Source: Acidimicrobiales bacterium (lineage in GTDB: Bacteria; Actinomycetota; Acidimicrobiia; Acidimicrobiales; Bin134). Taken from it: a DNA stretch of 64,000 nt. The DNA lies in assembly GCA_965200775.1 (NCBI GenBank), contig OZ241383.1, positions 1,141,008 through 1,205,007 of the forward strand, written 5' to 3'. The notes under the pieces are model-generated. The model was not told where the DNA came from. It saw only the letters and a program-made list of their open reading frames with translations, and did no database searches. Position numbers and translations under genes: made by a program. Shown here piece by piece: positions 32,493-64,000 of the stretch. Within the stretch, counting starts at the first letter, position 1. The number at the start of each line of letters is the position of its first letter.

Positions 32493-32595
32493 GCCAGACC
32501 CACCCCGCCCTGTTCGCTGAGCGGTCCGCGGCCGTACCCCCGGCTGTCTCCCTTCGAGGGGTTGGACCAAATCAGCGCGCTGCCGATGTCTTTTT

Positions 32596-33940
32596 GGTAG
32601 CTGGTTAACCTGGTTGTTCCGGTTATTGCAGTGAATATCCAAAGTTCTAGGTATTGTCTAGTGTTTGTCTGGAATTGCCAGTTTTTTCGGTTGATATTGT
32701 TACTGGGGTCGGTAGACTACATGGCATGGATTTAGGGCTCCTCACCAGGGACAACACCGAACCTCAGGCCACCGAGAGGTTTGGCGCTGCGCCGGCGGAT
32801 GATGGGTTGGGCGGGCTGGTTGATGTTGATCCGATGGAGTTGGATTCAGCAGAGGTAGCCAAGCTGATCTTGCAAGTCGACTCGACGCGTCGAAAGCTCG
32901 ACGGTTTGCTCACCGTGTTGTTGGGCCGGTTCGGTGACCTCGAAGGCGAAGACGCCGTTGTGGAGTTGTGCCGGCAGTTTGGTGTGGGTCGTCACAAAGC
33001 CCGCCGTCAAGCCAAAACCGCGTCAATCCTCAAAGACCTGCCCTACACGCTGGAGGCTTCAAAGGACGGGTGGATCACCATCGACCACGCCCAAGTAGTC
33101 GGCTAATCCCACCAAAGAGCCCCAATGGACGAAGACCAAGAACTTGAGCTCATCGGTTTGGCGATCACCGAGGACCTAGACCAGTTCAAAAAAACCGTCG
33201 CCCGCCTCGAAGAACAACGAGCCACAGCCGAAGGTCTCAGCCGCCACGAACAACAACGCCGGCGTCGCCGCGCATCAGTGCTCGACAGCGACAACGACAT
33301 GATCATCCTGCACGCGGAGCTGGACCGTGTCGCCGGGGAGCGAGTCAAAACCACCCTCAACGACTTGGACGATCGCATGTTCCGAGAAGACACCAAAACC
33401 AGAAACGACCGCACCCACCACCAACGCACCGCCGACGCCCTCGTAACGTTGATCACCCAAAAACCCGCCAAACCCGCCCAGACCGAAAAGTCTGAACCTC
33501 CCAGCAACGAGCCCGTAGCGCAGGCGACCACGCTGATCGTCACCGCCCACTACAACACCATCACCAACCGACCCCAACACGCAGGACTGATCGACGGCAC
33601 CCCCATCGACACCAACACCCTGCAGCGCATCGCCAGTGACGCAGCAGCGCTACCCACCATCTTCGACAACGACGACCAACCCCTCTACCTCAGCACCAAA
33701 CAACGATCAACCACCCAAGCCCAAAAACTCGCCTTATACGCCCAAGACAAACACTGCACCGGATGCGGACACAAAGCCACCACCTGCCACACCCACCACA
33801 ACCAATAGTGAGAACACAGCGAACCCACCGACATCACAAACCCCGCACTCCTCTGCCCCACCTGCCACAACAAAACCCACAAACACAACCACACCACCAC
33901 ACGGCACCCCAACAGCACCTACCAACTCAACCCGCCGTAG
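32596..33940. repeat. DUF222/HNH (REP13E12-like) repeat element, copy 1 (uninterrupted)
   Basis: Near-identical to 60051-60577 plus 63202-64000 (offsets 27,455 and 30,087 bp). The left boundary is accurate to about +/-1 nt. The right extent of identity is visible only to 33913 because the window ends. Confidence 0.9.
32654..33940 (+). pseudogene. DUF222 / HNH endonuclease family gene with three in-frame stops (TAA 33104, TAG 33806, TGA 33809)
   Basis: Track ORFs 32654..33106 and 33125..33808, plus the tail to 33940, share one frame. The tail reads ..CHTHHNQ**EHSEPTDITNPALLCPTCHNKTH, a broken HNH motif. The likely native start is ATG 32726 (MDLGLL). Confidence 0.8.
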
Positions 33941-54335: not shown

Positions 54336-55171
54336 GCGGCCCGCTCACCGAGACGGCGGTTGTCGTCCGGGTGGATGGCAACGAGGTTGCCGTGCCCGAG
54401 GGATCGACCATCCTCGACGCCTGCAACGAGGCCGGTGTGGAGACCCCCACCATCTGCTATGGCGACACGCTCACACCGGTGAACGTCTGCCGGGTGTGCG
54501 TGGTGGAACTCGACGGCAGCCGGGCCTTGGTCCCCTCCTGCTCCCGCCCGGTGGAGGAAGGCATGGTGGTTCACACCGACAGCGAGCGGGTCCGCCACAG
54601 CCGCCGGATGGTGCTGGAGTTTCTGGCCACCGGGGTGGACCTGACCCAGGCTGACGATCTCGGTCGGTGGTCCGAGCAGTACGGAGCCGACCCCGACCGC
54701 TACACCCCCGACGCCGAGAAGATGAACGAGCCGGTGCGGGTGCAGGACAACCTCTACATCCGGGACTACGGCAAGTGCGTGCTGTGCTACCGCTGTGTGG
54801 AGGCCTGCGGCGACGACGCCCAGCACACCTACGCCATCTCGGTGGCGGGGCGGGGTTTCGGGGCTCGCATCTCCACCGAGTTCGACGTGGCCCTGCCCGA
54901 CTCAGCCTGCGTGTACTGCGGGAACTGCGTGGCGGTGTGCCCCACAAATGCCCTCCAGTTCAAGACCGAGTACGACCTGCGCGAGGCTGACGACTGGCGA
55001 CCCGACGACCAGTCGGTAACCCAGACGGTGTGCTCCTACTGCGGGGTGGGCTGCAACCTGGAGTTGCACGTGCAGGACAACCGCATCGTCAAATGCACCT
55101 CCCCCGACGACCACGACGTAACCCGGGGCAACCTCTGCATCAAGGGCCGCTTCGGCTGGACCTACGTGTAA
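54332..55171 (+). CDS. Formate dehydrogenase alpha, N-terminal Fe-S part (NuoG-like 2Fe-2S and 4Fe-4S domains plus the MopB 4Fe-4S motif)
   Basis: ATGA overlap with the upstream gene (279 aa). Motifs CYGDTLTPVNVCRVCVVE, CVLCYRCVEAC, CVYCGNCVAVCP and CSYCGVGCNLELHV. It ends ..NLCIKGRFGWTYV*, exactly where the 50648 ORF (RERLTVPMVRDRGELREATWDEAL) would continue a full-length subunit. Confidence 0.85.
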   Translation: MSGPLTETAVVVRVDGNEVAVPEGSTILDACNEAGVETPTICYGDTLTPVNVCRVCVVELDGSRALVPSCSRPVEEGMVVHTDSERVRHSRRMVLEFLATGVDLTQADDLGRWSEQYGADPDRYTPDAEKMNEPVRVQDNLYIRDYGKCVLCYRCVEACGDDAQHTYAISVAGRGFGARISTEFDVALPDSACVYCGNCVAVCPTNALQFKTEYDLREADDWRPDDQSVTQTVCSYCGVGCNLELHVQDNRIVKCTSPDDHDVTRGNLCIKGRFGWTYV

Positions 55172-55191
55172 GGGTGGCGCGGCCGCGCTCC

Positions 55192-56196
55192 CTAACCCTC
55201 GTCCTCGTCCTCTAGGTCTGGGTCCTCAAGATCAGGGTCCCAGAGCTCTTCGTCTAGCTCATCCACAAGCGGCCCAATGGTCTGCAAGAGCTGAGCGCAC
55301 TGATCGGCCATCCATTTGTGCATCTCGGGGTGGCTCTTGTTGTCCCTGACGGTGCCAAGTCCATTCACTTTGATCCGACAGCCGAGCTTGCCCTCCATCT
55401 CGTCCCAGACCAGAGAATTCGCAAGTGTCTTGGGTAGTCGGTGTGAGCTTTGGCGCAAAGCTCGGAAAATCCGGTCGTTCACCGCACTGTCCGTCGTCCC
55501 AATGTATATCTCACTGAAAATGCCGCCGCGGGAGAAGCCAGCAACCAATTTCACGCTCTTTCTCACTGTCTTGAGTTCCAAATAATGGCGGTAAGGCGCA
55601 TTGCGTCTTCTTGTGAGATTGGGGTGCTGGGCATGAACCACCTCAAGGAAGCCAGTCCAAAATCTCATGTACGAGGTCTCTCTCTCCGTGCGATCGCTCG
55701 CCCGCGTGACAGACCGAACCTGTGCCTTCCAGTTGCTCGGGCTCGACACCACCCGAAAGATGGGCGCCACTTTGGAGTTGCCGATGCGGCCAACTCGCAC
55801 CTCAACGCCGAAGAAGCGCGTGTCGCCGTCCGAAACGTCGTTTAGGAACTCCAGCGCCTGATGGTGTTCATCACGGAAGGATGGAGAGACCCAGACAATG
55901 GTTCTGGCATCGGTTCCAGCGGCGTACGTCAGCAGTTGGCTGAGATGGCGGTGGTCGGTCTCCTCAAGCTGGTTCTCGACGATCAGCGGACGCTGATTCG
56001 TCTCATCGGTGCCGAACAAGTCGACCGCATAGCGCCCGACTGCATGCTCCCGGCCGTGGAGCGCCAGATCGATCCCAAGCAGGTCGCCCAAGTACTCCTC
56101 GTTCTCGAGCAACCATGGCGTGAAGTCCCCGGCCTCGTTCGACCACACCTCCCGAGGGTCGAGGTATTCAAGCCGTCCAAGCGGCTCCTCCGCCAT
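55192..56196 (-). CDS. DUF4268-type protein with an N-terminal PD-(D/E)xK-like nuclease module
   Basis: ATG at 56196 preceded by GGAGG (334 aa). Motif VENQLEETDHRHLSQLLTYAAG. Acidic C-terminal tail. Lower G+C than the core. Confidence 0.6.
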   Translation of the reverse strand: MAEEPLGRLEYLDPREVWSNEAGDFTPWLLENEEYLGDLLGIDLALHGREHAVGRYAVDLFGTDETNQRPLIVENQLEETDHRHLSQLLTYAAGTDARTIVWVSPSFRDEHHQALEFLNDVSDGDTRFFGVEVRVGRIGNSKVAPIFRVVSSPSNWKAQVRSVTRASDRTERETSYMRFWTGFLEVVHAQHPNLTRRRNAPYRHYLELKTVRKSVKLVAGFSRGGIFSEIYIGTTDSAVNDRIFRALRQSSHRLPKTLANSLVWDEMEGKLGCRIKVNGLGTVRDNKSHPEMHKWMADQCAQLLQTIGPLVDELDEELWDPDLEDPDLEDEDEG

Positions 56197-56291
56197 ACCT
56201 CCAGGGTACCGGCACTGGCATCCGCTCCCAAACGTGGCAAACCGCGACCGCAGCGAGGAGCCAGTAGTGGGTCGTCGCGTCGCTGGGTGGG

Positions 56292-56798
56292 TCAAGGGAT
56301 GACGATGTGGGCGATGTCCTCAATCAGGTCGCCACCGCTGGTGAAGAGGCGGTGCTCGCTGTCGGCCACCTCGACGCGCACCGAGTGGTGGCCGGGCTCA
56401 TGCATCTCCACGACACCCTCGGTATCGTACAGTCGACCCTGTTTCTCGCCGTTTACGTAGATGTGGAAGTGTCCCTGCACCTTCCCCAGCTCCGTGGTGG
56501 CGGCGGTAACGGCAGCGGTGAGGCGGTTCCAAGGCCTGGCCGCACAGCGAGGAACGCAAACCACGCCCCAAACCGCCCCGAGCACTAGCCCACGACCAAT
56601 CCACCACGCGCCGACCCTCGAACCGCCGAGCGCGAGCCCACTACCTACCCACCAGGCGCCGACCCAGGGACTCCCCCGACGAAGGCGCTTGTGGCCAACG
56701 CCCGGGTGCCGCGCGAGGCGTCCGACCGCGTTGTCCCCCCGTGCGACCGTCCGTCCGGTGACCTCGCACGCAGCCCCTGCATCGCCACCCGATCGCAT
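56292..56798 (-). CDS. Hypothetical membrane-anchored protein with a small His-rich C-terminal domain
   Basis: 168-aa ORF with ATG start. Duplicated GAWW(V/I)G.GL.LG hydrophobic segment, then GHFHIYVNGEKQ...HEPGHHSVRVEV. The true start is uncertain. Confidence 0.35.
   Translation of the reverse strand: MRSGGDAGAACEVTGRTVARGDNAVGRLARHPGVGHKRLRRGSPWVGAWWVGSGLALGGSRVGAWWIGRGLVLGAVWGVVCVPRCAARPWNRLTAAVTAATTELGKVQGHFHIYVNGEKQGRLYDTEGVVEMHEPGHHSVRVEVADSEHRLFTSGGDLIEDIAHIVIP
56580..56675. repeat. Imperfect in-frame 48-nt tandem duplication inside the hypothetical gene
   Basis: 56580-56627 versus 56628-56675, aligned by eye. It encodes the duplicated GAWWxGxGLxLG segment. Confidence 0.75.
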
Positions 56799-56843
56799 GG
56801 CTGATGATCATTTCGATCTAATCTGAGGTATCTTGCTGATCGC

Positions 56844-57667
<824 letters not shown>

Positions 57668-57669
57668 CA

Positions 57670-58295
57670 ATGGAGCGGGACGAGGCGACAGCTCGGCTCA
57701 AGGAGCTGATTGGATGCGACCTGGTTGAGGTTGCCCGTAAGCACCAGGTCGTCATCGAGCGTGACGGCAAGATCAACAAGGGATGGAAGGGCCACACTCT
57801 TGAACGACACCTCGGCCTTCCACTCAACTCCTGCCAAGCTCCCAACTTTGGCTCTTGGGAGCTCAAGCAGATCTCGCTCAAGAGACTCAAGAATGGACTC
57901 CTAGCAATAAAGGAGACAATGGCCGTAACCATGATCGATCCCCAAAACGTCTTGATCACCGACTTCGACGACAGTCATCTCTTGCGCAAACTGAGCAGAG
58001 GTCTGCTAGTTGCGGTAATCGCGACAGCACTGCAGAAGCCGGGAAGCTTGTCCACTCGGTGTCACCCATCGACGTTCCCGAGGGTTCTGAGGTCTACAAG
58101 ATCATCAGAGACGACTACGAACTGGTCCGCATGCAAATTCGCCGAAGTGGATTCGAGTCGCTAACCGGGCGCATGGGGACCTACATCCAGCCGCGAACGA
58201 AGGGTGCAGGGCACGGAAGCACCTCACGCGCCTTCTATGCCCGGAAGGAGTTCCTCGGACGGTTCGTCAGGCTAGGTGACGTCGAGTGGCGATGA
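57670..58295 (+). pseudogene. Type II restriction endonuclease, MutH/Sau3AI - MvaI/BcnI-like, frameshifted near 58000-58030
   Basis: ATG 2 nt after the methyltransferase stop. The N-terminal part (track 57670..58164) has GKINKGWKGHTLERHLGLPLNS.Q.P.F..WELK. The C-terminal part (track 57855..58295) has GTYIQPRTKGAGHGSTSRAFYARKEF. The two overlapping frames imply a -1 shift. Confidence 0.6.
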
Positions 58296-59123
58296 AGGCT
58301 GCTGGTGCTGCCAGAGGGTGCTGATGGGCAGGGCCCAGAGGCGGTCGGCTAGGGGGAGGGTGGCTAGGCCGGTGTGGAGGACTATGCCGGCGAGGAAATG
58401 GTCGCCGGTGTGGTCTCGAAGCCAGGCCAGGTGGCGGGCGTCGTCGAAAGAGGGTGCTGCGGTGGCTTTGATCTCGAAGGCGATCAGGCGCTGGGCGTTG
58501 AGCTCGGCGACCACGTCGAACTCGTGGCGGCCGTGGTGCTAGCGGAGGTGGTAGAGGCGGCAGCGGTGTTCGCTGGCGCTCGCCTGTGCCCTCAGCTGAG
58601 CGACGACAAAGGTCTCGAGCAGCCGCCCTAGGAGGTTGCCGTCGCGCATGGCGGTGTCGGCGGTGCTGCTGGTCACCGAGGCCAACAGCGAAGAGTCGAC
58701 GAGGAACCGCTTAGGCGTGAGGGACAAACGCTTGAGCAGGTTCGATGTCCAGGCGGGCAGCTCGTCGACGATGTGCAGCCGGCCCAGCAGCTCCAGATAG
58801 CGCAGCATGGTGCGACGGTTGATGCCAGCAGCCTCAGCGAGGGTAGCGTCGTCGGTCACCCCGGCTGAGTTCAGCGCGTACGCCTCGGAGAAGCGCCCGA
58901 GCCTGACGTCGTCGTAGTTGCCGCCCGCGGTCTCGGAGCCGCGTGTGACGATCTCGTTGACGTAGGTCTCCAGCCACAGGCGCCGGGCCGGTTCGAGCAA
59001 CCGTTCGATGCACGACGCCACAGTGACCGACTGCACAGATTTGACAGCTCTGAGTACCACAATTTGACACCTACGAGTACCGACCTCCGACGCCCCTCCC
59101 CGCCTCTGCCGGGGAAATGTCAC
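58272..59123 (-). pseudogene. DUF4143-type AAA ATPase remnant (5'-truncated, in-frame TAG at 58539-58541)
   Basis: Track ORFs 58539..59123 and 58272..58514 share a frame (..RLYHLR*HHGRHEFDVVAELN..). Only the C-terminal half of the family layout is present (..RRLWLETYVNEIV...INRRTMLRYLELL...PAWTSNLLKRL). Confidence 0.65.
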
Positions 59124-59128
59124 ACCCG
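59108..59128. repeat. Left copy of an inverted repeat of about 20 bp (ccggggaaatgtcacacccgg)
   Basis: The reverse complement of 59997-60018 (ccgagggaaagtgtcacacccc) matches, with two 1-nt indels. Confidence 0.7.
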
Positions 59129-59301
59129 GTGCTTAGCGTCAAACAGCGGCCAGTGGGCTTAGGGATGTCGCAGGTGGGTTGAACACCCCGTGGGAACTCG
59201 CGATTTGCGTTGCATGGATAGTCCCACAGGGTTATCCTGGCTTGAATCCTCCCCGCCTGGCCTGCTAGCAGGGCATGGCGGGGGTTTATCGTTTCAGGCC
59301 C

Positions 59302-59934
59302 ATGTCCAAAACGCGAGTCGTCGTCTTCATCGACTACCAGAACGTCTACCACTCTGCGAGGGAGCTGTTCGGAGGGCCAGGGAGGGCCCATCCGTCCATC
59401 GGGAATGTGGACCCGTTGAAATACGGGCAGATGCTTTGCGACCTTGGCAAGGCAAAAGACCCCAACCGGGCCCTCCAGAGCGTACGCGTATACAGGGGTA
59501 GGCCGGTCCGCGGTGAAGGGCACGAGAAGGTTTGCTGAGCATTCGACCGTCAGGTCGCCAGATGGCGGAGAACCTCAGGCGTGGAACTGTTCACTCGACC
59601 ACTGAGGTACTACCCAGCCATAAGCGATACCGGGCAGCGCTACAGACGTGGTGAAGAGAAAGGCGTGGACGTGATGATGGCGTTGGACATCGTCGTCGAA
59701 GCGATCAAGGATGCATACGATGTCGCGATCGTGGCCACCGCTGATAGCGACTTACTTCCAGCAGTGGAACACCCCCTTGCTGCCAAGAAGCGCGTTGAAA
59801 CTGCTACATGGTGGGCTCGCAAATCACCCCGCGGCCAACTGAGAGTCCCGAGCCGCAAGATCTGGAACCACAACCTCGACAAGAGCAAATTCGACATTGT
59901 GCGAGACGACACCGATTACCTTGCTCTCCCCTGA
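59302..59934 (+). pseudogene. NYN (LabA/PIN-like) domain protein with an in-frame TGA at 59536-59538
   Basis: MSKTRVVVFIDYQNVY... continues in the same frame after the TGA (..EKVC*AFDRQVARW..RPLRYY..EKGVDVMMALD..ATADSDLLPAV). The track splits it into 59275..59538 and 59581..59934. Confidence 0.65.
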
Positions 59935-59996
59935 CCCAAGGCTCCTCACGACACCTCGGGTCTCAGGCCCAGGACCGATTTCGGCAAACCACTAGA

Positions 59997-60018
59997 GGGG
60001 GTGTGACACTTTCCCTCG
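59997..60018. repeat. Right copy of the inverted repeat flanking the NYN gene
   Basis: See 59108-59128. Confidence 0.7.
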
Positions 60019-60050
60019 GCCAACAGCTGAGCGCCAGAGTTCACTCCTTC

Positions 60051-60577
60051 GGTAGTTGGTTAACCTGGTTGTTCCGGTTATTGCAGTGAATATCCAAAGT
60101 TCTAGGTATTGTCTAGTGTTTGTCTGGAATTGCCAGTTTTTTCGGTTGATATTGTTACTGGGGTCGGTAGACTACATGGCATGGATTTAGGGCTCCTCAC
60201 CAGGGACAACACCAATACTCAGGCCACCGAGAGGTTTGGCGCTGCGCCGGCGGATGATGGGTTGGGCGGGCTGGTTGATGTTGATCCGATGGAGTTGGAT
60301 TCAGCAGAGGTAGCCAAGCTGATCTTGCAAGTCGACTCGACGCGTCGAAAGCTCGACGGTTTGCTCACCGTGTTGTTGGGCCGGTTCGGTGACCTCGAAG
60401 GCGAAGACGCCGTTGTGGAGTTGTGCCGGCAGTTTGGGGTGGGCCGTCACAAAGCCCGCCGTCAAGCCAAAACCGCGTCAATCCTCAAAGACCTGCCCTA
60501 CACGCTGGAGGCTTCAAAGGACGGGTGGATCACCATCGACCACGCCCAAGTAGTCGGCTAATCCCACCAAAGAGCCC
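60051..60577. repeat. DUF222/HNH repeat element, copy 2, left arm
   Basis: Matches 32596-33122 with a handful of substitutions (for example gaacct versus aatact). It ends at the transposon target site. Confidence 0.9.
60109..60561 (+). pseudogene. DUF222/HNH gene copy 2, 5' part (same TAA stop as copy 1)
   Basis: The 150-aa ORF is identical to copy 1 except EP versus NT at residues 36-37. Confidence 0.8.
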
Positions 60578-60603
60578 GGGGCTTATATCGGATGGTGCCC
60601 AAG
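60578..60603. repeat. Terminal inverted repeat, left (ggggcttatatcggatggtgcccaag)
   Basis: Exact reverse complement of 63176-63201. Confidence 0.95.
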
Positions 60604-60608
60604 CACTC

Positions 60609-60731
60609 TCACTCACGGGTTCGCAGCACGGCATCCGCCAGCTCCTCGGGGGTGCAGTCAAAACGAAACACCTCATCAGGATCGTAAAGGTGCTCCAGCT
60701 CCGGCGGTATGGGATCTTCTTCTGGTGTCAT
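60609..60731 (-). CDS. Small acidic ORF (40 aa) inside the transposon
   Basis: ATG at 60731 preceded by GAAGGAGA. Sequence MTPEEDPIPPELEHLYDPDEVFRFDCTPEELADAVLRTRE. Below the ORF-track length cut-off. No recognised family. Confidence 0.35.
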   Translation of the reverse strand: MTPEEDPIPPELEHLYDPDEVFRFDCTPEELADAVLRTRE

Positions 60732-60742
60732 AGCCGTCTCCT

Positions 60743-62148
60743 TCATCGCATATGACCCAGTTTCGCATTCTGCCTACGCAGTCCTGTCAGCGTGTAGATA
60801 TTGCTTTTCAGCTTATTGCAAGGCCCGCACAACAGTATGCGGTTTGTGATGTGGTTCATGCCGCCTTCGGATCGGGGAATGTTGTGGTCCAACTCCAGAT
60901 AGCGGGGATCGTCGAACTCGCGGTCGCACCCCTGACACTTCTGGCCCTCCTGAGCAATGAGGTGGTTGTACATCTCAGCACGACTCCATTTAGGGCCTTC
61001 TGGCTCCTTCACACGTTCCTTGACGCGTAGGAACGGCGAGCCAACCTCGCCACCGTCGGTTCTAGCAGGAGGCTCAGTGGAGTATGTAACCTTTCCCAGT
61101 ATCCCAGTTATGTCCTTCAACCGATCTACTACCACATTATGAGCACCATCCCAAATGTCCGCTCCAACCCACGACCTTTCCAGCTTCTCGGCAGCCACAC
61201 AGGTCGTAGCACAACCAGCAAATGGGTCGAACACCACGCCACCCTTCAGTGTCCCCGTCTCGATGATTTGATAGTATAGGTTCAACGGCTTTTAGTGGGC
61301 CAGAGATATGGCTCTTTGGCCTTCTGTTTGGATCCCTTCTTCCGAATAGGGGTGAACTCGGTCCACCAGTCAGGTCCAGTCGTCCCCCTGTTCTCGTCAA
61401 GCCACACTTCGTTCAAATCATTCGGCACCGACTTGAGTCCTGCGAACACACCGGGATTAGTGTCCTTCAAGCGTTGATAGGTGATCTGTCCACTGGCATC
61501 AAAGTACGGCCCATACCGCTTCCTGGTTGACTGTGAGAGCGGTGCCATCGCCACTTCGCCTACGACACACGATTTGTTATCTTTCGCATACCACAGGATC
61601 AGGTCGTGGGTTCTCTTGTAGTAGTCGGTGTTCCTCCGTCCTGCCGGATCGGTGTAGCACCACACGATCTCGTTGCGGAAGTTTTTGTGCCCGAACACCG
61701 CATCCAGCGTGATCTTGAGATAGTGGCTGGCTGTGGGGTCGCAGTGCAGGAACAAATTGCCGGTGGACTTCAACAGCCGGTGCATCTCAATGATACGGAC
61801 AGCCATAAAACATATGTATGCTCCCATACTGTCCGAGTGTGCATAGCGGGCAGATTCGATGGCCTCAAGCAAATCCGGGTGGTCGTCTGCGATTTGGTCT
61901 ATCCAGTCGCTGTGGACATCATGCTCCCACGACCACCGATCTTGGAACTTTCCGCCAACCTCCAAACTATCGGGGGTGGCGTGGAAATCACGTCCCTTGT
62001 TGAACGGCGGATCGGTGGCGATCAGATCGAGCGTTTCGCTGTTCATACCGCGCATGACCGCCAGGTTGTCGTTGTGGAAAAGCGTGCGGTTCTCCCAATT
62101 CGGTTCGGCCATTATACTGCCAACTCCTCCATGCACCTTCTGGCCCAC
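60743..62148 (-). pseudogene. DNA methyltransferase (DPPF ... PTKS ... DPFAGCATT) fused to a C-terminal HNH nuclease domain, split by a 1-nt frame change at 61282-61285
   Basis: Track ORF 61282..62148 ends ..YLWPTKSR*. ORF 60743..61285 begins (L)NLYYQIIETGTLKGGVVFDPFAGCATT and ends with CQGCDREF..LELDHNIPRSEGG.NHITNRILLCGPCNKLK. The junction mRNA is AGC CGT TGA ACC. Confidence 0.75.
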
Positions 62149-63034
62149 ACCCCGTTCTCGATCAACTGCTCGTAGGTGAGCCTCTTGTGTTCCATACAGC
62201 GCACCATCCCGCCCATCTGGTCGACTGTGTCTTTCGGACGCTCGTTGTGGCGGTGCTCGAATTCTGCCACGTAGCGGTGCAGATGCTCTTCCGACATCTT
62301 GTGGTATGTCCCGTGGTATCCCCTCTTGAGCATGGCCCAGAAACTTTCCATCCCGTTGGTGTGGGCCATCTCGTCAACATACTGGCCCGTGGAGTGGCTC
62401 ACCGAGCGATGGCCGTAGCCCATGCGCGACAAGGGCAGGTAGCCCCTAGCCTCGTCCGTGAACACTGACGACCCCTTGTAGCGTGGTCGGCCACCATACC
62501 CGTCAATGTTCCTGCAGTGATGTCGGGCACCACGCGTGCAGCCACCCGCCCAGTCTCACGGTCCCTCACACCTGCCACAATAGCCTTCCCGACCGGACCG
62601 CCGGCGGCTGTCATCCTCTTATCGGCGTGCTTGTTGCGCTCCAAGCCGCCCACGTAGGTCTCGTCGGCCTCTAGCGTCGAGCTCATCAACGGATCCCCGC
62701 CCGCCATTGCCTCGCGTAGCCTGTGCAAGAGGAACCACGCGGCCTTCTGGCCGATACCCAGATCTCGGTGCAACTTCATAGACGACACCCCCTTCAGGCT
62801 GGTGGACACGATGTAGATCGCCAGCGCCCACGTCTGGTAGCCCAGGTTGGAGCACTCCATCACCGTCCCAGTCCGCACGCTGAACCGCCCGCGGCAGTCG
62901 CGGCACCGGAACGGCATCGTCCTATGCTTCGCACCTGATAGCACGTCCACGCTCCCACACTTGGGGCAGACCACCTTGTCAGGCCAGCGGCGCTTCACAA
63001 GCCACTTGTGGGCCTTCTCACCGGTCGGGAGCAT
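62112..63034 (-). pseudogene. IS1595-family transposase with a frameshift at a G4 run (about 62472-62479)
   Basis: N-terminal zinc-ribbon CPKCGS...CRDCRGRF and the start of the DDE domain (track 62399..63034). The rest (..VFTDEARGY..GYGHRSVSHS..HTNGMESFWAMLKRG..) lies in the -1 frame (track 62112..62465). Confidence 0.8.
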
Positions 63035-63175
63035 CCTAACGCCTGCACCAAGGTCATCCCGTCACGGTCTGCTCGGCCCGGCGCTTTCTTCTTCACTCTG
63101 TCCATTCCGACACACTACGGACAGCGAGTGACAGTTTATCTGTTTCGCCTAGTCAGACACAGTTTTCAATGTCAT

Positions 63176-63201
63176 CTTGGGCACCATCCGATATAAGCCC
63201 C
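63176..63201. repeat. Terminal inverted repeat, right (cttgggcaccatccgatataagcccc)
   Basis: Exact reverse complement of 60578-60603. Confidence 0.95.
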
Positions 63202-64000
63202 AAGAGCCCCAATGGACGAAGACCAAGAACTTGAGCTCATCGGTTTGGCGATCACCGAGGACCTAGACCAGTTCAAAAAAACCGTCGCCCGCCTCGAAGA
63301 ACAACGAGCCACAGCCGAAGGTCTCAGCCGCCACGAACAACAACGCCGGCGTCGCCGCGCATCAGTGCTCGACAGCGACAACGACATGATCATCCTGCAC
63401 GCGGAGCTGGACCGTGTCGCCGGGGAGCGAGTCAAAACCACCCTCAACGACTTGGACGATCGCATGTTCCGAGAAGACACCAAAACCAGAAACGACCGCA
63501 CCCACCACCAACGCACCGCCGACGCCCTCGTAACGTTGATCACCCAAAAACCCGCCAAACCCGCCCAGACCGAAAAGTCTGAACCTCCCAGCAACGAGCC
63601 CGTAGCGCAGGCGACCACGCTGATCGTCACCGCCCACTACAACACCATCACCAACCGACCCCAACACGCAGGACTGATCGACGGCACCCCCATCGACACC
63701 AACACCCTGCAGCGCATCGCCAGTGACGCAGCAGCGCTACCCACCATCTTCGACAACGACGACCAACCCCTCTACCTCAGCACCAAACAACGATCAACCA
63801 CCCAAGCCCAAAAACTCGCCTTATACGCCCAAGACAAACACTGCACCGGATGCGGACACAAAGCCACCACCTGCCACACCCACCACAACCAATAGTGAGA
63901 ACACAGCGAACCCACCGACATCACAAACCCCGCACTCCTCTGCCCCACCTGCCACAACAAAACCCACAAACACAACCACACCACCACACGGCACCCCAAC
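63202..64000. repeat. DUF222/HNH repeat element, copy 2, right arm (runs off the window)
   Basis: The encoded 227-aa ORF and the antisense ORFs are identical to those of copy 1 (33115-33913). Confidence 0.9.
63212..64000 (+). pseudogene. DUF222/HNH gene copy 2, 3' part (same TAG-TGA stops at 63893-63898)
   Basis: Identical translation to 33125..33808. The HNH tail continues to the window edge. Confidence 0.8.

Follow-up and report, generated by a model that had tools for sequence, protein, structure and literature searches.

The 64,000 nucleotides of Acidimicrobiales DNA analysed here (contig OZ241383.1; hereafter the window) carry at 60578–63201 a 2,624-bp element that is an insertion sequence (IS) of the IS1595 family, positioned within the second of two copies of a DUF222 repeat. 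The ends of the element (GGGGCTTAT) are formed by 26-nt inverted repeats, GGGGCTTATATCGGATGGTGCCCAAG, at 60578–60603 (cargo end, plus strand) and 63176–63201 (transposase end, minus strand), which are 100% complementary to one another, with the identical 8-mer AAGAGCCC flanking the element at 60570–60577 on the left and 63202–63209 on the right. No third copy of the 26-nt repeat was found in the window at up to 3 mismatches (matches in 0 of 100 shuffles). Copy 1 of the DUF222 repeat, on the plus strand at 32593–33913, retains the uninterrupted target, a single AAGAGCCC at 33115–33122 in the context caccaAAGAGCCCcaatgg, whilst copy 2 is divided between 60048–60577 and 63210–64000, where it is cut off by the window end. 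In-silico removal of 60578–63209 joins copy 2 into one 1,321-bp stretch that aligns with 32593–33913 at 99.47% identity over its whole length, with 7 mismatches and 0 gaps. An earlier note on this DNA had proposed the perfect 26-bp repeats, the 2,624-bp extent, the 8-bp duplication, and the empty site in copy 1, all of which are borne out to the base.

Both copies of the DUF222 repeat are pseudogenes, with the same TAA stop in each (33104–33106 and 60559–60561) yielding open reading frames (ORFs) of 150 and 227 aa, the 227-aa fragment matching Pfam DUF222, and with the C-terminal HNH part of the repeat truncated. The IS lies at the 18-nt gap that separates the two DUF222 ORF fragments, and the repeat was broken in both copies prior to its insertion. 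The best explanation of the arrangement is that the IS inserted into copy 2 after an already defective DUF222 sequence had been duplicated, with the two flanking 8-mers arising from that insertion. The copies themselves, 99.5% identical and 27 kb apart, may represent a mobile or recently duplicated unit.

The element has a G+C content of 57.3%, compared with ~66% across most of the window, and all of its genes lie on the minus strand, with three co-oriented and overlapping genes encoding a transposase, a methyltransferase-HNH fusion, and a 40-aa protein. A promoter scan of the element found no sigma-70-like site. The transposase is a pseudogene spanning 62112–63105, identified using Pfam and NCBIfam and by comparison with the intact ORFs of sister copies on the metagenome contigs L001 (331 aa), L003 and L096 (307 aa), and is divided between three ORFs on the minus strand: an N-terminal ORF with 24 conserved codons (62995–63105), an ORF carrying a Zn-ribbon and the first D of the DDE triad (62399–63034), and an ORF carrying the second D and the E (62112–62465). 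The DDE_Tnp_IS1595 domain (PF12762) matches two of these fragments with 32.2 and 75.9 bits, its first half lying in ORF 62399–63034 and its second half (profile positions 81–153) in ORF 62112–62465, and Zn_ribbon_IS1595 (PF12760) matches residues 4–48 of ORF 62399–63034 with 35.7 bits (cut-off 25.4). The intact sister transposase scores 172.5 bits against the NCBIfam model transpos_IS1595 (NF033547; cut-off 75). The DDE domain, N-terminal Zn-ribbon, short terminal inverted repeats, and 8-bp duplication of the IS1595 family are therefore all present, and the assignment made in the earlier note, which had hinged on homology to DDE_Tnp_IS1595, holds. The motifs HTNGMESFWAMLKR and AEFEHR also occur in the transposase and, together with the element ends, may resemble those of the ISNwi1 subgroup in ISfinder (ggnnatTAT ends, DDEK and ER4). 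As passenger genes lie inside the inverted repeats, the element is a transporter IS (tIS) of this family.

The passengers are those anticipated from the sequence by the earlier note, a methyltransferase-HNH fusion and a 40-aa ORF. The fusion gene, also a pseudogene, occupies 60743–62112 on the minus strand and matches Pfam N6_N4_Mtase and HNH (40.5 bits), with an N-terminal fragment (61282–62112) carrying the motif IV sequence DPPF, and a C-terminal fragment (60743–61285) carrying the motif I sequence FDPFAGC and the HNH signature CxxC...DH...N...CxxCN. Positions 2–144 of the N6_N4_Mtase profile fall within ORF 61282–62148, and positions 169–217, along with the HNH domain, within ORF 60743–61285. 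The TAA stop of the transposase overlaps the ATG of the fusion as TAATG at 62110–62114. At the other end of the fusion, the 40-aa ORF (MTPEEDPIPPELEHLYDPDEVFRFDCTPEELADAVLRTRE; 60609–60731, minus strand) is preceded by an AGGAG 6 nt upstream of its ATG and ends 5 nt from the inverted repeat, with an alternative ATG at 60746 (45 aa) overlapping the stop of the fusion as ATGA. Gene callers predict this small ORF, with a length of 40 or 45 aa, in those sister copies that extend that far. It has no Pfam, NCBIfam, or PADLOC match, and a profile search with it returned 33 short proteins, all annotated as hypothetical.

Relatives of the window copy were found on a number of metagenome contigs, several of which encode a protein identical to the 276-aa methyltransferase fragment P0018. 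Two of these contigs (L001 and L003) carry the whole element, 99.66% identical to the window copy and with different flanks, and a further five (L002, L004–L006, and L095) carry partial copies. A more divergent copy on L096 (97.6% identical) is uninterrupted at both of the principal lesion sites of the window copy and encodes a 307-aa transposase, the 456-aa fusion P0122, and the small ORF. Intact versions, which the earlier note had recommended seeking among relatives, thus exist, with L096 intact at both lesions and the transposase uninterrupted in L001–L003. A search of metagenome contigs of the Joint Genome Institute (JGI) for exact inverted repeats gave no match. The surroundings of the L096 copy are themselves rich in related genes: the 5 kb that follow it (L096:6004–10332) encode a 507-aa methyltransferase-HNH fusion distinct from that of the element, together with an EcoRI-type methylase, an MvaI/BcnI restriction enzyme, and part of a methyltransferase, and a solo IS end is located at L096:2126, ~1 kb upstream of the intact sister element. 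This region of L096 is a restriction-modification hotspot with IS debris.

Comparison with these copies locates the breaks in both genes. The fusion has lost one nucleotide between 61293 and 61294, the C of the CAA codon that specifies the invariant Q of PTQKP, and this deletion separates the N-terminal part from the S-adenosylmethionine (AdoMet)-binding motif I and the HNH domain. At this site the window reads ACT-AAAAGCCG, as do all seven copies with 99.6–99.8% identity (L001–L006 and L095), compared with ACTCAAAAGCCG in L096, whose intact fusion P0122 reads WPTQKPLNLY. Sequencing error was rejected as the cause of this break, with the identical deletion present in ENA and Logan assemblies from at least seven runs. 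In the transposase, a complex 1-nt loss (AGCG to TCG) at ~62470–62472, confined to the window copy, parts the first D of the triad from the remaining D and E (window GGGGTCGTCAG; L096 GGGGAGCGTCAG; L001 AGGGAGCGTCAG). A G is also missing at ~63039/63040 in the window and in L096, and is present in L001, L002, and L003, so that the first 24 codons are not in frame with the rest. Distant relatives conserve these codons, with tblastn matches beginning at residues 1–8, and an internal ATG at 63034 may compensate for the break. Programmed -1 frameshifting at the two gene breaks was rejected because neither carries a slippery X XXY YYZ heptamer (GCT ACA AGG GGT; ACT AAA AGC) and because sister copies read through both, the transposase in L001–L003 and the methyltransferase-HNH gene in L096 (P0122).

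The single frameshift that the earlier note had assigned to each gene is therefore real in both cases, with uninterrupted counterparts in the sisters, but the count falls short for the transposase, which has a second frame break at its N-terminus. With the DDE triad split and the methyltransferase-HNH fusion truncated, the window copy is dead. The proposal that it is probably immobile stands for autonomous movement, but movement in trans is conceivable, given the perfectly repeated ends of the element and the presence of intact transposases in copies from related populations.

Four sister copies carry the methyltransferase lesion with a transposase that is intact at the DDE lesion site, and the copies that share the methyltransferase deletion and extend into their flanks lie in at least three distinct contexts, the window included, and the lineage therefore appears to have kept inserting after its cargo was lost. 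The differences between the window copy and L001 all fall within the first 731 nt at the transposase end (62616–63051 compared), with 0 in the other 1,893 nt, and at six of these sites the window shares the state of L096. The window copy is therefore a mosaic, which suggests gene conversion between IS copies and does not fit uniform decay. Between the window copy and L096, the ratio of nonsynonymous to synonymous change (pN/pS) amounts to 0.08 in the methyltransferase-HNH gene, against 0.25 in the transposase and 0.26 in the small ORF, and the cargo was therefore strongly constrained until recently.

Relatives of the fusion are widespread. The reconstructed protein has more than 6,700 database protein matches, the full-length ones 53–71% identical and carrying N6_N4_Mtase and HNH, and a genomic scan of one genome per species identified 574 loci, the best 80 of which provide the counts of neighbourhood, layout, and transposase linkage given below. 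The hosts of these 80 loci, represented by metagenome-assembled genomes (MAGs), belong to the Alpha- and Gammaproteobacteria, Chloroflexota, Acidobacteriota, Bacteroidota/Rhodothermales, Gemmatimonadota, Nitrospinota, Nitrospirota, Actinomycetota, Spirochaetota, and Thermodesulfobacteriota, along with one Nitrososphaerales archaeon. Many bear the names of sponge symbionts (Poriferisocius, Poriferihabitaceae, Poriferisodalaceae), with the link to sponges drawn from the record names. An IS1595 transposase adjoins the fusion in 35 of the 80 loci, in one of two layouts, either immediately 5' of it in the same orientation or 3' of it and convergent, and no other recurrent neighbour, whether a separate nuclease, specificity, or controller gene, was found in the 80 loci. 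MAGs spanning more than 10 phyla share the three-gene layout, the ends GGGAATTAT, and duplications of 8 bp. A related element, with cargo 68% identical, was found in five contexts in two metagenomes, with its genes in the order transposase, fusion, and 59-aa ORF.

A search of the 80 loci and of five related metagenome loci (L007–L011) for inverted repeats identified 21 bounded elements of 1,546–3,886 bp, with ends of the form GGGAATTATA, GGGACTTATG, or GGGCTTATATAC. Perfect 8-bp duplications, mostly AT-rich, flank 16 of the 21, several of which are pairs from the same genome with different duplications. The shortest, at L062:340–1885 (1,546 bp), has ends that match at 25 of 26 positions (GGGAATTATCCCGC) and an 8-bp duplication (CTTTGTTG), carries the methyltransferase-HNH gene only, and is a non-autonomous tIS derivative that has kept its cargo and lost its transposase. 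No full-length version of the fusion was found among 72,556 plasmids and 50,697 phage genomes from mostly cultured hosts, where matches cover the methyltransferase part only (at most 35% identity, or 40% over half of the query), and one distant full-length relative (35% identity) was found in IMG/VR.

Within the family, the N- and C-terminal thirds of the fusion are nearly invariant, with DPPF, PTQKP, DPFxGC, and the CxxC/DH/N/CxxCN residues of the HNH domain present in all members of a 40-sequence alignment, whilst the central third occurs as several mutually unalignable types and is likened for that reason to a target-recognition domain. The AlphaFold2 (AF2) model of the fusion (pLDDT 78.9) matches beta-class amino-methyltransferases, namely MboIIA (TM score 0.80 on target), BceJIV, RsrI, CcrM, and Type III Mod, with no solved structure of a methyltransferase-HNH fusion among the structure matches. 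The best PADLOC matches are Type II and Type III methyltransferases. The small ORFs located directly 3' of fusions share the C-terminal motif [AT]TPE-LA-A-LR (in the window, DCTPEELADAVLRTRE), some together with an RGRP AT-hook. The encoded protein may be a DNA-binding regulator. The TPE-LA-A-LR motif occurs in 11 of the 35 loci linked to a transposase and in 1 of the 45 loci without one, indicating that the small ORF travels with the IS and not with the fusion.

The transposase and the cargo do not share a common history. Pairwise identities range from 29 to 72% for the transposases and from 48 to 83% for the cargo, in a sample biased towards close cargo relatives, and no co-divergence of the two was found (Spearman coefficients of -0.25 to -0.31; Mantel p 0.97–0.99). 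In one genome (OZ245331.1), two loci (L020 and L044) have cargo that is 83% identical, transposases that are 36% identical, and opposite layouts, which is direct evidence of cargo moving between IS backbones. Together with the lack of co-variation, this pair indicates that the methyltransferase-HNH gene is a cassette exchanged among IS1595 backbones.

We consider it probable that the element is a tIS bearing restriction-modification-like cargo, a dead copy of which lies in DUF222 copy 2. By analogy with the family, the Zn-ribbon/DDE transposase would bind the 26-bp inverted repeats and insert the element at an 8-bp staggered cut, possibly via a circular copy-out intermediate as in IS1595 relatives, with the two passenger genes apparently coupled to it translationally. 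The fusion, with its predicted beta-class N6-adenine/N4-cytosine methyltransferase, variable central recognition region, and C-terminal HNH domain, would methylate sites in the host genome and cleave DNA lacking that methylation, favouring retention of the IS, and the 40-aa protein would move with the IS backbone. Most likely, judging from its sequence, the fusion is a self-contained, single-chain restriction-modification-like module, and most likely a defence or addiction cargo that takes no part in transposition itself. The family has the methyltransferase motifs (DPPF, PTQKP, FDPFAGC) and the HNH catalytic residues expected of such an enzyme, the gene being disrupted by the frameshift in the window copy. 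A restriction-modification role is favoured because the catalytic centres are invariant, the recognition region is swappable, and partner genes are absent, and because the fusion also stands alone in chromosomes and is under strong purifying selection, and restriction-modification systems are known to be enriched in sponge symbionts.

Several observations weigh against this account. The fusion lies without a nearby transposase in 45 of the 80 loci, and is therefore not strictly an IS gene, and its role in restriction is putative. The fusion would also make a weak addiction module, as a single truncating mutation abolishes the whole fused enzyme, as has happened here. The sister elements at L001:2469–5094 and L096:3159–5785 end in inverted repeats that are perfect or nearly so, yet their two flanks share no 8-bp duplication, which may reflect recombination of one IS copy with another or a chimeric assembly of metagenome reads at the repeat. 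Finally, the DDE lesion could in principle be an assembly error, yet it is a complex change and no homopolymer slip.

A bolder form of the same account is doubtful. It holds that many IS1595 elements, as one large clade, may have become durably associated with an exchangeable cassette, a single-chain methyltransferase-HNH protein whose target-recognition region can be swapped, and with a tiny IS-linked protein, forming a minimal self-mobilising restriction-modification or addiction unit. This unit would have spread over bacteria of more than 10 phyla, and to one archaeon or more, in sponge and other marine holobionts, with the nuclease promoting retention or spread of the IS by cutting unmethylated, element-free DNA, as a protein-guided analogue of TnpB/IscB.

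Alternatively, the fusion and the small ORF may be accessory factors of transposition or element maintenance, and not cargo, although this is unlikely. The HNH domain might cleave empty or donor sites that lack methylation, with repair restoring the element in a form of homing or retention similar to that of TnpB/IscB, or methylation of the ends might time transposition, as Dam methylation does for IS10 and IS50. Such roles would account for an association that is old and widespread, spanning IS1595 backbones of 29–72% identity and two gene orders, for the translational coupling implied by the TAATG and ATGA overlaps, for the stronger constraint on the cargo than on the transposase (pN/pS of 0.08 compared with 0.25), and for the retention of the fusion in L062 after loss of the transposase; the HNH domain is also weakly similar to that of IscB/Cas9, a generic resemblance. 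The lineage with the truncated fusion, however, still occurs in at least three contexts, and more than half of the best loci carry the fusion without a transposase. Nor do cargo and transposase identities co-vary, as exemplified by L020 and L044 (83% compared with 36%), and the co-evolution with the IS expected of a homing or retention nuclease was not seen (Mantel p 0.97–0.99). This pattern fits an exchangeable cassette, not a co-evolving partner.

It is quite improbable that the fusion is an orphan protective methyltransferase, allowing escape from host restriction after transfer or acting epigenetically, with an HNH domain that is inactive or has a role other than restriction. Its nearest matches in cultured collections are indeed beta-class methyltransferases of phages and plasmids (30–35% identity, methyltransferase part only), and the PADLOC model for orphan methyltransferases was also matched, but the metal-binding and catalytic residues of the HNH domain are invariant in 40 of 40 members, which argues that the nuclease is under selection, and the full-length fusion is essentially absent from the phage and plasmid collections. 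That the apparent insertion is an assembly artefact, or that copy 1 arose by precise excision, is scarcely credible, for whilst the material is a single window and the flanks of L001 and L096 lack duplications, the two DUF222 copies are 99.5% identical and gap-free outside the element with the 8-mer exactly once at the empty site, the same element and ends occur in independent assemblies from at least seven runs, 16 relatives carry the same signature of inverted repeat and 8-bp duplication, and precise excision of DDE elements is rare.

Directly upstream of DUF222 copy 2 lies a low-GC island (~0.59; 55000–60000) of decayed defence-type genes. These comprise a DUF4268 protein (55192–56295, minus strand), an N6_N4 methyltransferase truncated at profile position 144 (56844–57728), a MutH/MvaI_BcnI-like restriction-enzyme fragment (57670–58164), a DUF4143 fragment (58539–59123), and an NYN-domain ORF (59581–59934).

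Whilst the window copy is itself a clean textbook insertion accompanied by its own empty site, it is dead and of minor importance. The significance of a tIS with probable restriction-modification-like cargo lies with the wider family, a compact vehicle of ~2.5 kb comprising a transposase, a one-protein methylase-nuclease, and an ORF of 40–80 aa, which appears to carry restriction-modification-type functions between very distant microbes of one animal host. The fusion would be invisible to isolate-based surveys, as the full-length gene is missing from plasmid and phage collections of mostly cultured hosts. The family offers natural material for studying how defence or addiction genes hitch-hike on IS, and whether such cargo affects the persistence of the IS. 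Its methyltransferases, which differ by swapped recognition regions, could also be compared with the methylation motifs called from long reads, as many of the related MAGs derive from PacBio or Nanopore runs.

Both the backbone and the principle are of a known kind, with tIS of the IS1595 family, and restriction-modification units bounded by 26-bp repeats and 8-bp duplications, described previously. What may be new is the cargo of a beta-class methyltransferase-HNH fusion and a small ORF, together with the repeated occurrence of this cargo on many IS1595 backbones and its spread across phyla; full-text literature searches, with ISfinder outside their scope, found no paper on methyltransferase-HNH cargo on an IS1595 element. 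The passenger-carrying subgroups of ISfinder include ISNwi1+ and ISPna2+, and the GGnnnTTAT ends and DDEK...ER4-type motif of the element may resemble those of ISNwi1. Transporter IS are defined in the literature, which confines them to the IS1595 and IS66 families, and MTnSag1 of S. agalactiae and tISCpe8 of C. perfringens, both IS1595 tIS, form a circular intermediate. The element described here shares with these two a single Zn-ribbon/DDE transposase, inverted repeats of ~25 bp, an 8-bp duplication, and internal passengers. It differs in carrying a methyltransferase-HNH fusion and a 40-aa ORF in place of a lincosamide-resistance or mobilisation gene, and in its hosts, which are uncultured marine or sponge-associated lineages. 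Restriction-modification systems have been reported as enriched in sponge-symbiotic Actinobacteriota.

A close parallel to the element is provided by Furuta, Abe & Kobayashi 2010 (PMC2853133), who describe restriction-modification units of N. gonorrhoeae (Type IIG) and X. oryzae (XorKII) bounded by inverted repeats, the Neisseria unit having 26/26 bp repeats and a decayed transposase-like gene (COG3677), and who cite the IS1595 paper for IS elements that flank restriction-modification systems and solitary methyltransferase genes. Those units likewise comprise restriction-modification genes within inverted repeats, with an 8-bp duplication and an empty site in a relative. They contain Type IIG plus S genes, or an R and M pair, and no beta-class methyltransferase-HNH fusion, and are isolated cases, whereas the present family numbers hundreds.

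At the level of the protein, the fusion is similar to the Type IIC/IIG enzymes MmeI, BcgI, and Eco57I, which also combine nuclease, methyltransferase, and target recognition in one chain with a variable recognition region. Variability of the recognition region between otherwise conserved relatives is well known for Type IIG enzymes. In contrast to the N-terminal PD-(D/E)XK nuclease and gamma-class methyltransferase of the latter, the sequence of the fusion predicts a beta-class methyltransferase (MboIIA-, RsrI-, CcrM-, and Mod-like) followed by a C-terminal HNH domain. As a nuclease gene that is a lasting companion of a transposase within an IS and also occurs in transposase-less copies, the fusion further resembles TnpB/IscB of the IS200/IS605 and IS607 elements. 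Unlike these, it has no evident guide RNA, so that specificity would be protein-encoded, and as cargo it shows no co-divergence with the transposase and was dispensable for spread in the lineage of the window copy.

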